A DNA stretch of 45,069 nucleotides, taken from the NCBI GenBank assembly GCA_964466145.1, contig CAYXMW010000001.1:1-45069 (forward strand), written 5' to 3'. This DNA comes from an uncultured Pseudomonadales bacterium (GTDB lineage Bacteria; Patescibacteriota; Microgenomatia; UBA1400; PJMF01). Shown here in pieces: positions 8,310-42,792 of the stretch (the stretch's first letter is position 1; the number at the start of each line of letters is the position of its first letter). The notes under the pieces are model-generated. The model ran no database searches and had not been told where the DNA came from. It worked only from the letters and a program-made list of their open reading frames with translations. The translations under genes and the position numbers were made by a program.

Positions 8310-8375
8310 ATGTGCGGAGCACCTTTTATACCAGCTAAATTTTATTATAAATCTAAAATTAAGGGTCTAAAATGA
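8310..8375 (+). CDS. Mini-ORF A (21 codons, MCGAPFIPAKFYYKSKIKGLK), translationally coupled to lemA
   Basis: ATG 8310 is preceded by a GAGGA SD with 4-nt spacing. Stop TGA 8373-8375 overlaps the lemA ATG 8372-8374 (ATGA). It shares 22-nt and 23-nt identical blocks with mini-ORF B. Confidence 0.4.
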   Translation: MCGAPFIPAKFYYKSKIKGLK

Positions 8376-8938
8376 AAAAACCTTTCTTAACACTAGGAGC
8401 AGTAGTAGTAGTTTTAGGAATGTGGCTAATGGGTACCTATAATGGACTAGTGGGACTCGGTCAGCGAGTTGATAGTCAATGGGCTCAAGTAGAAACACAA
8501 TACCAACGTCGTTTTGACTTAATACCAAATTTAGTTGAGTCAACCAAAGGTTTCTTAACCCAAGAACAGGAAGTTTTTTCTAATATCGCTGAGGCTAGAC
8601 AAGGATATGCTGGTGCTGGCACTGCCAATGAAAAGGTCGCTGCAACTAACGAAATGGAATCAGCCTTAAGCAGACTATTAGTTATCGTAGAAAATTATCC
8701 TGAATTAAAATCTAACGAAACAGTTCAAGATCTAATGGTTGAGTTAGCTGGCTCTGAAAACCGAGTTAGCGTTGAACGAAAACGCTATAACGACACCGTC
8801 AAAGGATACAACGTTAAAGTTAAAACTTTCCCTACCATGATGGTGGCAAGTATGTTTGGTTATACTGAAAAACCATATTTTGAAGCAGTTGAGGAAGCAG
8901 AAGCTGCTCCAGCAGTAAATCTAGATTTAAATGATTAA
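8372..8938 (+). CDS. lemA: LemA family protein
   Basis: 188 aa with an N-terminal TM and LemA motifs (VDSQWAQVETQYQRRFDLIPNLVE, ENYPELKSNE). Confidence 0.85.
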   Translation: MKKPFLTLGAVVVVLGMWLMGTYNGLVGLGQRVDSQWAQVETQYQRRFDLIPNLVESTKGFLTQEQEVFSNIAEARQGYAGAGTANEKVAATNEMESALSRLLVIVENYPELKSNETVQDLMVELAGSENRVSVERKRYNDTVKGYNVKVKTFPTMMVASMFGYTEKPYFEAVEEAEAAPAVNLDLND

Positions 8939-15616: not shown

Positions 15617-16030
15617 TTAACGAAGATATTTTTTAACTTCTCTTAAAACTTTTTTACTTCCTGCAAAAGTAATTTTCTGCATCGCCTCTTTATACTCAAA
15701 CCAGCCATAGTCAGATACTTCTGACTCTTGAATCACAACCTTCTTATCGCTCACCCAAGCTGGATAATAACTGACCGTTTTATGAAAAATCTGACCATCT
15801 TTTTGCGGATAATATTCTTCTTGAAAGATTATTGAATTGTCAACTTGATACTGCATAATGCCAGTTTCTTCTTCAAACTCGCGCTGAGCGGTTTCTAAAA
15901 ATGATTCCTCTCTCTCAGCATGACCTTTAGGAAAAGCCCAGTGGCCCTCAGTGTGTTGAATTAATAAAAACTCAATAACGTCGCCGTCTTTGTGCATTGG
16001 TACCAAACCAAAAGAAACATCTTTTTTCAT
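15617..16030 (-). CDS. Nudix hydrolase (Ap4A-hydrolase-like)
   Basis: Nudix box GHAEREESFLETAQREFEEETGI, with HWAFPKG upstream of it. Confidence 0.85.
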   Translation of the reverse strand: MKKDVSFGLVPMHKDGDVIEFLLIQHTEGHWAFPKGHAEREESFLETAQREFEEETGIMQYQVDNSIIFQEEYYPQKDGQIFHKTVSYYPAWVSDKKVVIQESEVSDYGWFEYKEAMQKITFAGSKKVLREVKKYLR

Positions 16031-16140
16031 TTTAGACCCTTAATATTCTTTCGAACCCTACTTTTTGTAAAAAAGTAGTTGGTGTAAAATATGCTGTGCA
16101 TAGTATAAAATTTAGCTGGTATAAAAAGTACCATGTGCAT
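16027..16140 (-). CDS. Mini-ORF B (37 codons, MHMVLFIPAKFYTMHSIFYTNYFFTKSRVRKNIKGLK), translationally coupled to the Nudix gene
   Basis: The open frame ends in TGA 16029-16027, overlapping the Nudix ATG 16030-16028 (ATGA). TGcTATAAT lies 9 nt upstream of its ATG. It shares FIPAKFY and IKGLK-stop with mini-ORF A. Confidence 0.4.
   Translation of the reverse strand: MHMVLFIPAKFYTMHSIFYTNYFFTKSRVRKNIKGLK
16058..16078 (-). promoter_or_regulatory. 9-bp hairpin inside mini-ORF B
   Basis: Plus strand CTACTTTTT-GTA-AAAAAGTAG, a perfect 9-bp stem with a 3-nt loop, about 28 nt upstream of the Nudix ATG. Absent from the otherwise homologous locus A. Confidence 0.4.
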
Positions 16141-16149
16141 AACAGTGAA

Positions 16150-16158
16150 ATTATAGCA
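16150..16158 (-). promoter_or_regulatory. Putative extended -10 promoter (TGcTATAAT) 9 nt upstream of the mini-ORF B ATG
   Basis: The minus strand reads tttGCTATAATttcactgttATG. Confidence 0.45.
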
Positions 16159-16167
16159 AACTAAAAA

Positions 16168-16731
16168 TTAGTCTTTACTGGGAGTTTCTTTACTACTACG
16201 AAGCTTGAGCTGTCTATTCCAACCAGTATCAAGAGCAGACTCTACTTTTTTCTCAGCCTCTTCTAACTCTAATCCCAAAACATGAGCTACTTCTTGCTGA
16301 AAACGCATCATCACCATCCCAAAAGTATTACGTTTACTAATAGTAAAGTTTTTATCCTCATCTCTTTTTTCTTCCCAAAGAGTTTTAAGCACTTGAGCAA
16401 TGTCATGAAGCTCATTGGTGCTAATAATTCTCTTCACTTTTAATTGATTAAACTTAATACGCTCGTAATCACCTTGGCGTAAAAACTTCAGCTCATCATT
16501 TAAAATAGTTTTAGAAACTGGCAGTCTAATTGTAGTCTTATCGATATTACTTAGAGAGATAGAAAGCTTCAAAGTCTCATTGCTGCGAGTCTTATAAACA
16601 GGCTCAAAGTAAATTAATTTATCTTTTTCGCCATCGTTGTTTTCAATTTTTTCAAGCTTGGTAATTTTATTAACTATCCCAAATCTAATAATTAGATCAT
16701 TCTTTTTTAGCTCATTTAATTCATCGGTCAT
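16168..16731 (-). CDS. CarD/CdnL-like transcription factor (tentative)
   Basis: 187 aa. N-terminal beta-rich segment (LKKNDLIIRFGIVNKITKLEKIE) and C-terminal helical segment (FTISKRNTFGMVMMRFQQEVAHVLGLELEEAEKKVESAL) resemble the CarD_CdnL_TRCF architecture. Confidence 0.5.
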   Translation of the reverse strand: MTDELNELKKNDLIIRFGIVNKITKLEKIENNDGEKDKLIYFEPVYKTRSNETLKLSISLSNIDKTTIRLPVSKTILNDELKFLRQGDYERIKFNQLKVKRIISTNELHDIAQVLKTLWEEKRDEDKNFTISKRNTFGMVMMRFQQEVAHVLGLELEEAEKKVESALDTGWNRQLKLRSSKETPSKD

Positions 16732-16740
16732 AAGATGGTC

Positions 16741-16749
16741 ATTCTAACA
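16741..16749 (-). promoter_or_regulatory. Putative extended -10 (TGtTAGAAT) 9 nt upstream of the CarD-like ATG
   Basis: The minus strand reads ggctaTGTTAGAATgaccatcttATG, with no SD. Confidence 0.4.
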
Positions 16750-16786
16750 TAGCCTGGATATAGAGTTAAGTATCTTCTTGTAAGTC

Positions 16787-23825: not shown

Positions 23826-23966
23826 AAAACCTCTCTAATAATTAATATTGAGAGGCTTATTAAGACATCTTTCCTCTCATGGTCGGAATTAGCACCTGCC
23901 AATCATAAACTAGCGGTTGCTGGATGAGTCATAAAGCCGAATCTCTACTCATCTCTCTTGATGTAA
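23826..23966 (-). promoter_or_regulatory. SAM-I (S-box) riboswitch with SD-sequestering expression platform
   Basis: Minus strand: ACAUCAAGAGAGAUGAGUAGAGAUUCGGCUUUAUGACUCAUCCAGCAACCGCUAG...UGGCAGGUGCUAAUUCCGACCAUGAGAGGAAAGAUGU (aptamer about 23865-23964). It carries the SAM-I hallmarks AUCAAGAGAG, GCAACC, GGUGCUAAUUCC and AAAGAUG, closed by P1 ACAUC/GAUGU. It is followed by the hairpin CCUCUC-N14-GAGAGG, then UUUUAUG. Confidence 0.85.
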
Positions 23967-23971
23967 AAAAC

Positions 23972-35075: not shown

Positions 35076-36452
35076 ATGTCTCTCAGGGGGAAAAGAATTG
35101 GCACAGTCTTATCGATGACGTCTTTAGTGAGTAAAAATGCTCAACCGGGCACCTTTGCAGCTGGAGAAAAATTTATTGATTGGTTAGCTAAATCTAAACA
35201 AAATGCGTGGCAGGTTTTACCACTTCATCAAACTCAACTAGAAAAAGGATCTGCTATTAAACATATCCCCTCACCCTATAAAGGCTATGGCATTGGATTA
35301 AACCCCCGCTTTTTAAGCAATGATGCACCTCAACCATCACCTGAACAACTAGCTGAATTTATTAAAAATAATAATTATTGGCTAGAAGATTATGTTTTAT
35401 TTTGCGCTCTACGAGATCAATTTGGAACCGACAGCTGGAATCAGTGGCCAGCTGATATTAGAAAAAGAAATAAAAATAGCATTAAAAAATGGCAAAAAAA
35501 ACTAGCTTCTCAAATCAATGCCCACATCAAAACTCAAGCACAACTACATCTTTCTTATAAGCAGCTTCAAAAAAAAGCTGCTAGCAAAGAGGTGATGCTG
35601 ATTGGAGATCTACCTCTTTATTTAAGCCTAAATAGTTCTCTGGTGTGGCAATTTCAAAATCTATTTGATATTAGCAAAGATGGAAAGATGCAACGAACAA
35701 GTGGCGTACCAATAGGTCCAAAATCCCATTTTGGAAGACAAATCTGGGGTCATCCTCTATATAAGTGGCAAGAGAGAAATTTAATCCCAAAAATAGAAAA
35801 ATTATTTGAAATTAGACTCAAGTACCTAGCTCAGCTTTTTGATTGGGTGAGAATCGATCATGCTAAAGGCCTCTTTACTTACGCTGCCATGGATTTAACT
35901 ACAAGAAATGCTGATCAGTATTTGCCAGGTCCTGGAAAAAAATTCTTAGAAAAAATAATTAATTTTGCCCATCAACAAAACTTAAACATTTATGCAGAAG
36001 ATACTGGGGATAAACTTAAAGACCTGAGGGAGTGTTTACAGTCTCACCAAATACCAGGCATTAAAATTTTCATATATGCTTACAATGAAAAGAAAAAGAG
36101 ATTCGTAGATCAATATCTAGAGGTTGATCAATATCAACCCAATAATTTTGCCTATACCACTACTCATGATACAGAAACCTTAATGGGTTACTTGCAACAA
36201 CTTTCAGCAACTGAAATCAATACTTTAATTAAAAAACTAAATATCAATAAGACTGATAATTTGAAACTTCTAGCTAAGCAAATCAAAGATAAAATAATTA
36301 ATTCCCCAGCAAAAATAGCACTCATTACTCTTCAAGATTGGCTGTATACTACCGAACGCATCAATATCCCTGGCACTGAAAAAGAAATCGATGATCCAAA
36401 CTGGAGATATCAAATGATCACGCCAATAGAAGACCTACCGACAAACCTATGA
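35076..36452 (+). CDS. malQ: 4-alpha-glucanotransferase (amylomaltase, GH77)
   Basis: GH77 catalytic contexts VRIDHAKG, YAEDTGD and TTTHDT. N-terminal RIGTVLSMTSL. Confidence 0.85.
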   Translation: MSLRGKRIGTVLSMTSLVSKNAQPGTFAAGEKFIDWLAKSKQNAWQVLPLHQTQLEKGSAIKHIPSPYKGYGIGLNPRFLSNDAPQPSPEQLAEFIKNNNYWLEDYVLFCALRDQFGTDSWNQWPADIRKRNKNSIKKWQKKLASQINAHIKTQAQLHLSYKQLQKKAASKEVMLIGDLPLYLSLNSSLVWQFQNLFDISKDGKMQRTSGVPIGPKSHFGRQIWGHPLYKWQERNLIPKIEKLFEIRLKYLAQLFDWVRIDHAKGLFTYAAMDLTTRNADQYLPGPGKKFLEKIINFAHQQNLNIYAEDTGDKLKDLRECLQSHQIPGIKIFIYAYNEKKKRFVDQYLEVDQYQPNNFAYTTTHDTETLMGYLQQLSATEINTLIKKLNINKTDNLKLLAKQIKDKIINSPAKIALITLQDWLYTTERINIPGTEKEIDDPNWRYQMITPIEDLPTNL

Positions 36453-36526
36453 AAAAATGCAGATCATCTTGCATACCAGCTAATTTTTCTGCACTCTGTT
36501 TGAAAAAGTCAGGGTCCGTAATATGA
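36449..36526 (+). CDS. Mini-ORF C (25 codons, MKKCRSSCIPANFSALCLKKSGSVI) bridging malQ and glgA
   Basis: ATG 36449 overlaps the malQ stop TGA 36450-36452. Its own TGA 36524-36526 overlaps the glgA ATG 36523-36525. It contains ATACCAGCTAATTTT (36473-36487), the core shared with mini-ORFs A and B. Confidence 0.35.
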   Translation: MKKCRSSCIPANFSALCLKKSGSVI

Positions 36527-42168: not shown

Positions 42169-42792
42169 ATGAGAAATTTTAACGATAACAATAGATCTAG
42201 AAGACCTCGTGGCGGAAGAGATTTTGACCGAAGAGGAAGAAGAGATAGTGGTCGGCGCCGAATGCATGACGCCATTTGCGCGGACTGTGGTGACAACTGC
42301 AAAGTTCCTTTTATACCTAGCTCTGGAAAACCTGTTTACTGTAGCAACTGTTTTGAAAAAAGAGGAAATGGAAATCGTAACTCTAGACAAGACTCCAGAA
42401 GACCTAGTTTTTCCAACAGAGATAATAGATCATCTAGAGATAGTCGCCCAGCTAGAAATAGTCGTCCTCAAAAAGATTACGATCAACAGTTTGAGACCAT
42501 TGATGCCAAACTCAACAAAATTCTAGGAATATTAATCCCAAAAAAAGAAGCGGCCGAAATTAAACCAGCTGCCGTTATCGAAGAAGCAATGGTTAAAGAA
42601 CCAATCGTTGAAGTTGAGACTCAAGAAGAGCCAGTTGTAGAAAAAGCAGCTGTTGAAGAAAAGGTTGTCCCAGCCGAAACAGAAGCAGAAATAGCTGCTA
42701 AAGAAATTATTGAAACAGAAGTAGAAGCAGCTGTTGAAGAAAAAACTGTCGCAGCCGAAACAGAAGCAGCTGTTGAAGAAAAAACTGTTTAA
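42169..42792 (+). CDS. CxxC-x17-CxxC zinc-ribbon protein with Arg-rich flanks and acidic repeat tail
   Basis: CADC-(17 residues)-CSNC counted directly. R/G/S/N/D-rich segments lie on both sides. The C-terminal tail consists of AAVEEKTVAAETE-type repeats. ATG 42169 is preferred over TTG 42163. Confidence 0.7.
   Translation: MRNFNDNNRSRRPRGGRDFDRRGRRDSGRRRMHDAICADCGDNCKVPFIPSSGKPVYCSNCFEKRGNGNRNSRQDSRRPSFSNRDNRSSRDSRPARNSRPQKDYDQQFETIDAKLNKILGILIPKKEAAEIKPAAVIEEAMVKEPIVEVETQEEPVVEKAAVEEKVVPAETEAEIAAKEIIETEVEAAVEEKTVAAETEAAVEEKTV
42646..42789 (+). repeat. In-frame 39-nt coding repeats (GCAGCTGTTGAAGAAAAxxxTGTCxCAGCCGAAACAGAA)
   Basis: Copies at 42646-42684 and 42727-42765, plus a partial copy at 42766-42789, encoding A-A-V-E-E-K-(V/T)-V-(P/A)-A-E-T-E. 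Confidence 0.6.

Follow-up and report, generated by a model that had tools for sequence, protein, structure and literature searches.

A short open reading frame (ORF), mini-ORF B, runs into the start codon of a Nudix hydrolase gene in the genome under study, G000, with a promoter-like box in front of it and a hairpin within it. The question raised by this locus, locus B, is whether it constitutes a leader dedicated to the Nudix gene, as an initial annotation of the DNA proposed, or whether it belongs to something of wider distribution. All window coordinates given here refer to the whole 45,069-nt stretch of G000, the window, which is part of an assembly of 636 kb (0.64 Mb) that is 84% complete. 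The named relatives of its methionine aminopeptidase place G000 among the Patescibacteria (CPR). For comparison, five sister genomes of the genus (G001–G005) were used together with G015, a single-contig genome of another genus that is rated 100% complete. We find that locus B is composed of two nested copies of an interspersed repeat, and is not a dedicated Nudix leader. Probably, this repeat resembles the MIRUs (mycobacterial interspersed repetitive units) in that it inserts at start codons and carries a mini-ORF that passes ribosomes on to the gene.

Structure of the locus in front of the Nudix gene

Copies of the repeat were identified with two covariance models, R1, built from 10 copies, and the more diverse R2, and with nhmmer for more diverged copies in G000. 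Locus B has the following features (SD, Shine-Dalgarno):

16150..16158, minus strand: extended -10-like box TGCTATAAT, read directly; putative promoter of a leaderless-type transcript
16027..16140, minus strand: mini-ORF B, 37 codons; its TGA (16029-16027) overlaps the Nudix ATG (16030-16028) as ATGA
16025..16133, minus strand: outer repeat unit of the short-loop subfamily, with the inner unit in its loop; end-to-end match to R1, 48.6 bits
16045..16104, minus strand: inner repeat unit, 60 nt, nested in the outer loop; R2 matches 16044-16096 with 42.3 bits, and the unit aligns to locus A
16058..16078, minus strand: perfect 9-bp hairpin, which is helix P2, the upper helix, of the inner unit and has a homologous covarying helix in the family alignment
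16037..16041, minus strand: SD-like AAGGG from the unit, 6 nt ahead of the Nudix ATG and paired in the basal helices
15617..16030, minus strand: Nudix hydrolase gene, host of the insertion (Pfam NUDIX, E = 4.9e-17)
16168..16731, minus strand: CarD_C-like gene upstream of Nudix; in the sister genomes its stop precedes the Nudix ATG by roughly 13-35 nt

On the minus strand, 9 nt (16149-16141) separate TGCTATAAT from the ATG of mini-ORF B at 16140; a -10 box, 9 nt and an ATG make up the sequence of a leaderless start, and the mini-ORF B ATG would be one. The box, confirmed by reading the sequence, is present as initially described, and so are the AAGGG, whose spacing before Nudix falls in the peak of SD-like 4-mers in G000 (5-8 nt), and the hairpin, with its arms at 16078-16070 and 16066-16058 and its loop at 16069-16067. 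Locus B is read as a short-loop unit with a second unit in its loop because R1 matches the whole and R2 the inner part. The approximately 58 nt, or 16 codons, by which it had been noted to exceed locus A, a related site at LemA, do stay in frame, but they are not an extra peculiar to this locus, being a second copy of the unit. As for the peptide, the initial count of 5 Phe is correct, while there are 3 and not 4 Tyr, and the richness in these residues follows the AT-rich stem, which agrees with the suspicion that the aromatic bias stems from AT-rich sequence.

The same nested composite, about 87% identical, is present in G001 ahead of a non-orthologous lipoprotein gene, and the peptides of the two composites differ at 8 of 37 residues (manual reading). 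A related strain is represented by a 205-nt contig (run X2, depth 3.1) in which 6 nt replace 16045-16104, leaving a single unit before Nudix; this single-unit state rests on one low-depth contig, in which the Nudix part is about 89% identical. The other DNA contigs mapped over locus B mostly reflect cross-mapping of other copies, and where mapped contigs show the junction 16044/16105 with 12 letters between, the sequence is that of locus A itself.

A functional Phe- and Tyr-rich mini-ORF that tunes the expression of an Ap4A-hydrolase-like enzyme with the help of a dedicated hairpin is therefore a highly improbable explanation, already contradicted by the comparative data, even though the locus does have the anatomy described for it, including the leaderless-type box and the ATGA overlap. 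The unit precedes at least 11 unrelated genes in G000 (LemA, Nudix, a glgA-like gene, pth, two family-2 glycosyltransferases, a Mur ligase, a sortase, a 7TM protein, UDP-glucose dehydrogenase and one unknown), and Nudix lacks it in all five sister genomes. The single unit in the related strain and the composite before the G001 lipoprotein gene speak against such a leader as well, as do the differences between the composite peptides and the substitutions among five short-loop copies, most of which (5 of 6, manual reading) change the amino acid.

A dispersed repeat family

The repeat is not limited to loci A and B, as had first been thought, since there is a third copy in the window and a total of 18 matches to R1 in the G000 genome. 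The other copies in the window are:

8310..8377, plus strand: locus A, a single short-loop unit at the LemA ATG, with a 21-codon mini-ORF (8310..8375)
36449..36526, plus strand: third copy, long-loop subfamily, between malQ-like (GH77) and glgA-like genes (covariance-model match 36462-36526)

Loci A and B share blocks of 26 nt and 25 nt, each 96% identical, and a 17-mer over the SD and ATG has exactly 2 occurrences in the window, where 0.44 would be expected even with up to 3 mismatches allowed. The GAGGA assigned to mini-ORF A is present 4 nt before its ATG. In the third copy, a mini-ORF of 25 codons links the two neighboring genes: it starts on the ATGA at the end of the malQ-like gene and stops on the ATGA at the beginning of the glgA-like gene.

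The unit is about 55-65 nt long and interspersed. A 14-nt core of the shared block occurs exactly 6 times in the 636-kb assembly, to which nhmmer adds diverged copies, and the matches at the end of contig C15 and the start of contig C28 probably represent a single copy that the assembly has divided. Within any one genome the copies are almost identical, and they form subfamilies (short-loop and long-loop); tandem arrays of 2-3 units occur. Covariance-model matches were obtained in 12 of 60 relatives and in 16 of 150 genomes of an order sample, and in none of the 150 genomes of a class-wide sample drawn mostly from other orders. The repeat is thereby placed in a single order of Patescibacteria, with 28 unit-bearing genomes among the roughly 210 scanned in that order. 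Even within the genus the distribution is patchy: three sister genomes have 16 (G001), 19 (G005) and 3 matches, and two have none. There are 10 matches in G015.

At the gathering score, Rfam 15 gave no match for the repeat unit in the whole window, the sole match being a SAM riboswitch elsewhere, and E-value scans of loci A, B and a stand-alone copy returned chance-level matches only. ARAGORN found no tRNA and no tmRNA over the window. A full-text search of the open-access literature gave no prior description of such an element in Patescibacteria.

Assembly artefacts are seen at some copies in G000. An N-run at C5:19291-19403 is flanked on both sides by the same ~55 nt, and one unit contains a contig break.

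Fold and covariation of the unit

Folded singly, all copies look alike, with a 5-bp basal helix, a single mismatch, an ACC/GGU helix, a 2-nt bulge and an upper helix that is variable in sequence and loop. The 3' strand of the basal helices contains the SD-like AGGG together with the bases between it and the next ATG. From a plain, unfitted MAFFT alignment of 10 copies, RNAalifold recovers 16 of the 17 model pairs. Relatives provide a further alignment of 31 copies (30 distinct rows), with 96.3% of cells paired and double-sided changes at 14 of 17 pairs; it was fitted to the model and favours the structure for that reason. None of 500 shuffles reaches these pairing and covariation values, and sliding the 3' partners lowers pairing to 54-59%.

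The basal helix has 23 G.U and 4 A.C cells, which argues that it is the sense strand that folds. Overall, the numbers are 48 and 40, without asymmetry, and many of the A.C cells are located in upper-helix columns where some copies bulge. The single-strand folding argued from the basal helix also bears on whether the unit might be a miniature inverted-repeat transposable element.

The mismatch and bulge positions vary in sequence among copies. A riboswitch does not fit these data, as site occupancy differs between sister species and there are no conserved unpaired pocket nucleotides. Integron attC sites, K-turns, hammerhead-like cores and CRISPR were also considered and set aside on sequence misfit, judged by their known motifs only.

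According to the initial annotation, a ribosome has to melt the hairpin before it reaches the SD and start codon of Nudix. Pairing of the SD and start in a hairpin is retained here as a predicted feature of the family, but a hairpin dedicated to Nudix is not.

Placement at start codons

Twelve of the 18 matches in G000 end exactly on the ATG of a gene on the same strand; in addition to the host genes listed above, there is a twelfth that runs off its contig. Orthologous sites were compared for eight genes across the five sister genomes, with insertion and loss events unrooted. The pattern is the same for all eight: where the site is empty, a promoter or SD is followed by the ATG and the gene, and where it is filled, the same upstream sequence and ATG are followed by the unit, a second ATG and the gene. 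The sites are:

Nudix: empty in 5 of 5 sister genomes (spacer, ATG, gene); filled in G000
pth: empty in G003 and G005 (TGnTAGAAT, 6 nt, ATG); filled in G000 and G001 (same box, ATG, unit, ATG)
UDP-glucose dehydrogenase: empty in 3 sister genomes (-10-like box, 7 nt, ATG); filled in G000 and G001
LemA: empty in 3 sister genomes (SD-like motif, 5-6 nt, ATG); filled in G000
glgA: empty in G004 (malQ and glgA overlap by ATGA); filled in G000 (25-codon frame from ATGA to ATGA) and G001
Mur ligase: empty in 5 sister genomes (TATAAT, 6-8 nt, ATG); filled in G000
7TM protein: empty in 5 sister genomes (TATAAT, 6-8 nt, ATG); filled in G000
lipoprotein: empty in G000, G002 and G005; filled in G001

Based on these empty and filled sites, the ATG of the mini-ORF corresponds by position to the original start of the host gene, with its original signal. 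At locus B, the mini-ORF ATG occupies the position of the Nudix start codon of the sister genomes, where the spacer and ATG are followed by the same N-terminal codons with no unit in between. In the same way, the GAGGA ahead of mini-ORF A is the ancestral SD of LemA, because the empty sites in G001, G004 and G002 have the SD-like motif and ATG directly on LemA. At pth, the units in G000 and G001 belong to different subfamilies, and at the G001 glgA site the malQ frame reads through the unit as a C-terminal extension.

Even where they lack a unit, the sites of pth, UDP-glucose dehydrogenase, Mur ligase, the 7TM gene and the lipoprotein gene have a -10 box. Locus B and the G001 composite align through the box, and we considered that the box might travel with the composite unit; this was dropped because the empty sites already have the box.

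Insertion of the unit is more parsimonious than repeated precise loss. Every site shows a duplication of the ATG, possibly of ATGA plus a small number of further bases, and the hairpin arms could act as inverted repeats.

Reading frame and leaderless context

The reading frame was evaluated in 27 distinct gene-adjacent copies; because the copies descend from one another, the frame counts are not independent and overstate the agreement. TGA is a stop codon in G000, where 76 of 445 long ORFs end on it. In 25 of the 27 copies no stop interrupts the ATGA-terminated frame within the unit; for the two remaining frames this holds in 3 copies and 1 copy, respectively. An in-frame ATG at or before the 5' end of the unit is found in 18 of 27. 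Of 19 distinct gene-adjacent cores, 16 span a whole number of codons between the basal helix and the gene ATG, with four lengths represented (42, 48, 51 and 54 nt), whereas the core lengths of 54 other copies are unbiased, with 22, 18 and 14 in the three classes modulo 3. ATGA is present at 24 of the 29 gene-adjacent starts scored, compared with 230 of 445 long ORFs genome-wide. The SD-like AGGG of the unit is located 6-8 nt before the new ATG, within the normal SD range of G000.

The leaderless-type arrangement initially described for locus B recurs both in the family and in the genome as a whole. A -10-like hexamer is present 4-11 nt upstream in 13 of the 16 gene-adjacent copies that have an in-frame ATG near the 5' end, and in 105 of 424 G000 ORFs of at least 150 codons such a hexamer ends 6-9 nt before the first ATG, against a background of 2-13 per position; the spacing of the box at locus B agrees with this peak. 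This is a strong signature, at the sequence level, of leaderless genes throughout G000, and it matters for the calling of gene starts in this lineage.

Proposed working of the repeat

From these comparisons we infer a start of transcription ahead of the mini-ORF, translation of the mini-ORF, its coupling to the gene, and movement of the unit. The original ATG of the host gene is kept 5' of the unit together with its initiation signal, which at Nudix would be the TGnTATAAT located 9 nt upstream. The unit provides a stop-free frame that ends in TGA over a second ATG (ATGA), the new start of the gene. Ribosomes would begin at the old ATG and read the mini-ORF, 37 codons in the case of Nudix, melting the hairpin or hairpins that hold the SD, of which there would be two, one nested in the other, at Nudix. 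They would stop on AUGA, and then either restart on the gene or leave the SD exposed for a new ribosome. Since ribosomes would pass through the mini-ORF to the gene, an insertion would hardly alter the expression of its host.

In the parts of a 2025 review that bear on coupling (PMC12548453), short upstream ORFs are described as delivering ribosomes, with RNA-unfolding and reinitiation as the two models of how coupling takes place. Judged by its sequence, the repeat appears to have the features needed by both. It resembles the short coupling ORFs of that source in that the only likely role of the mini-ORF is to deliver ribosomes to the AUGA and to melt the structure at the ribosome-binding site; the ORFs described there are locus-specific, whereas the device is carried here by a spreading repeat (PMC12548453).

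Evidence against coupling and against mobility

A number of observations weigh against the working proposed above. At locus B itself, the fold of 16020-16145, suggested initially as a check, is unexceptional (-21 kcal/mol, z = -1.41) and no better than that of shuffled sequences, 18 of 200 of which fold at least as well. The support for structure derives from comparison between copies and not from this single fold. Short-loop hairpins are in general weak, only about -5 kcal/mol. Furthermore, the five sister genomes have no -10 box before Nudix, for which reason the promoter at 16150-16158 is regarded as specific to G000 and putative. The box is also absent from the list of a consensus promoter scan, with no -35 match, because that scan demands one; the same promoter and terminator scan found no terminator between the CarD-like gene and Nudix.

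As for the frame, 9 of the 27 gene-adjacent copies do not have an in-frame ATG at or before the 5' end, two of them being cut by a contig end, and the frame counts could largely reflect a single open consensus frame. In several copies (e.g., G000 C7 and C16:9441) the 5' ATG reads ATA and a gene follows nonetheless, which indicates that the SD of the unit may suffice. The frame opened by the 5' ATG has just 8 codons in many long-loop copies, ending at a stop inside the hairpin, compared with 19-37 codons in short-loop copies (manual reading). Finally, units also occur away from starts (5 of the 18 matches in G000, and many of those in relatives), next to tRNAs, in promoter-unit-terminator loci or in tandem arrays.

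The 5' ATG is also located in a small 4-bp hairpin whose G covaries, which argues against a coding role, and a regulatory leader peptide acting by attenuation or arrest does not fit, as neither peptide nor codons are conserved across copies. Because of the unconserved peptide, the placement of the 5' ATG in a covarying hairpin or its change to ATA, and the 8-codon frames, it is very unlikely that the peptide product matters, while the act of translation may.

Several of these points would be expected of a selfish mobile palindromic repeat, with a mini-ORF that has no role, a gene translated independently from the SD of the unit, and an open frame that is simply a property of the consensus. Copies in which ATA replaces the 5' ATG still precede genes, a third of the gene-adjacent copies (9 of 27) are without a spanning ATG-initiated frame, the SD spacing is normal for the genome, and the short-loop hairpins are weak; near-identity within a genome, subfamilies and a distribution that is patchy even within the genus also agree with this explanation. 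Other features are difficult to reconcile with it. The four core lengths preserve the frame in 16 of 19 gene-adjacent cores and the remaining copies show no such bias, the two units of different subfamilies at pth each leave the old leaderless ATG in frame with the ATGA, ATGA is more frequent at gene-adjacent starts than in long ORFs, and the SD is paired within the conserved structure. We consider this explanation unlikely, and favor that of a MIRU-like repeat with ribosomes passed on through the mini-ORF.

With respect to mobility, a search for the Y1 transposase (Pfam Y1_Tnp, PF01797) gave no match in the five unit-bearing genomes G000, G001, G004, G005 and G015, while 26 of the 61 genomes of that search had matches. 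Neither G000 nor the complete genome G015 yielded a reverse transcriptase. Tyrosine recombinases are present in all five genomes tested, including the unit-free G003, and are uninformative as to the mobilizing enzyme. No parent element of the unit came to light in these searches.

A more specific and only tentative proposal is that the repeat is an undescribed, non-autonomous mobile element of Patescibacteria that integrates at start codons, duplicates the ATG, forms a strand-specific hairpin and is moved by an enzyme of another kind than a Y1 transposase or a reverse transcriptase. The frame and SD inside it could then have evolved to invade leaderless, SD-led and ATGA-coupled genes without silencing them, and the promoter-unit-terminator and tRNA-unit-terminator loci could be transcribed source copies or a domesticated small RNA.

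Comparison with known repeats

MIRU tandem arrays are known as loci for variable number tandem repeat typing, and the primary description of MIRUs is reportedly that of Supply et al. 1997. As covered in the sections of the 2025 review on coupled ORFs (PMC12548453), MIRUs seem to be mobile elements with start codons as their insertion sites; the ORF they carry is coupled to the gene at -4 nt, and this coupling is thought to minimize the effect of the insertion. On that description, the Patescibacteria repeat is similar in being short, dispersed, apparently mobile and located at start codons, with an ORF whose stop overlaps the gene start at -4. The likeness is functional, by description, and concerns a different phylum; sequence homology is not claimed. 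Unlike MIRUs, the Patescibacteria unit has an SD of its own, paired within a covarying hairpin; leaderless starts are frequent among its sites, units nest, and a sizeable share are located by tRNA genes or in promoter-unit-terminator loci.

The REP/BIME elements (RAYT) and the palindromic elements derived from IS200/IS605 depend on a Y1 (HUH) transposase, and REPs are not known to lie at a fixed distance from starts. The repeat resembles REP/BIME in being short, multi-copy, hairpin-forming, intergenic and sometimes tandem, with strand-specific folding, but differs in that the five unit-bearing genomes checked have no Y1_Tnp match. Correia, ERIC, RUP/BOX and Rickettsia palindromic elements are small, non-autonomous palindromic repeats that are transcribed with their neighbors and can supply expression signals, and the Rickettsia elements can lie inside reading frames. 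None of them is known to combine targeting to start codons with an internal ORF coupled through ATGA, or to have been described from Patescibacteria.

Near-identical upstream sequences before non-homologous genes are also reported for reused or mobile promoters (PMC3575422). The promoter is not part of the repeat here, the -10 box being present already at empty sites.

For annotation, it follows that the mini-ORFs of the repeat are neither genes nor gene-specific leaders, and that the true start of the host gene is the second ATG. Genomes of Patescibacteria are very small and compact, and thought to be poor in mobile DNA. If the reading of a MIRU-like repeat is correct, this would be a second example, after MIRUs, of a mobile sequence rendered harmless through translational coupling, with ~18 copies in 0.64 Mb. 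The clean empty and filled sites, the nested copies and the leaderless, SD-led and ATGA-coupled starts would make it a good natural test bed for RNA unfolding versus reinitiation; in offering such sites, nested copies and different kinds of start, the repeat differs from MIRUs as we know them.

Stand-alone and tRNA-linked copies

A stand-alone locus in G000 (C16:8836-8963; L015 2837-2964) has a promoter of the form TTGACA-16 nt-TATACT, two tandem units and a terminator. Counterparts with one unit each are present in G001, G004 and G005 (L034, L036 and L076). Such a promoter-unit-terminator locus might encode a small RNA, act as a decoy or serve as a source from which the repeat is copied.

A tRNA-unit-terminator locus is present in G000 and G005, and in G004 a unit follows the same tRNA, with the contig ending before any terminator. 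A hairpin with CCCGGUGAGGGA adjoins this locus (L020 about 1588-1636; G000 C50 about 2690) and is found 3' of units in L026 and L030. The CCCGGUGAGGGA hairpin is conserved and recurs in three families of the order, with no match in Rfam even at E up to 10.

In G015, units precede tRNA genes singly or as a tandem triple. At G015:C1:358317-358492, 806720-806777 and 584120-584180 (L024, L035 and L105), the units end in ...AAATATAAT, 15-17 nt before the tRNA genes, and the 3' end of the unit may act as their -10 box.

The stand-alone, tRNA-linked and tandem loci keep alive a reading in terms of decoy RNA or source copies. One form of this is a trans-regulated RNA motif, in which the hairpin would be bound by a protein or ligand and control a regulon of about 12 genes, with the stand-alone loci and arrays serving as decoys in the manner of CsrB/RsmY. 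The covariation of the hairpin and its pairing of the SD agree with such a motif, as do the recurrence of the TTGACA/TATACT loci with a terminator in four genomes and of the tRNA-unit-terminator locus in G000 and G005 (and, up to the contig end, in G004), and the many downstream genes related to the envelope or to sugars. However, orthologous genes vary in having the unit among sister genomes (Nudix in none of 5, pth in 1 of 3 where found, UDP-glucose dehydrogenase in 1 of 4), the unit is missing altogether from two sister genomes, nested units occur, and there is no match to an Rfam family. Furthermore, the loops and stems are near-identical within subfamilies and it is the unpaired mismatch and bulge positions that vary. 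We regard a trans-regulated motif as very unlikely.

Other features of the window

The CarD_C-like gene has a TG-extended TAGAAT box 9 nt before its ATG (16741-16769, minus strand), and looks leaderless too. The SAM riboswitch (Rfam RF00162) is located at 23862-23967 on the minus strand and scores 46 bits, with a gathering score of 44.4. On the plus strand, 42579-42782 contains tandem direct repeats of 36-81 nt that are rich in GAA/GCA and probably represent a repetitive coding stretch rich in Glu, Ala and Lys.

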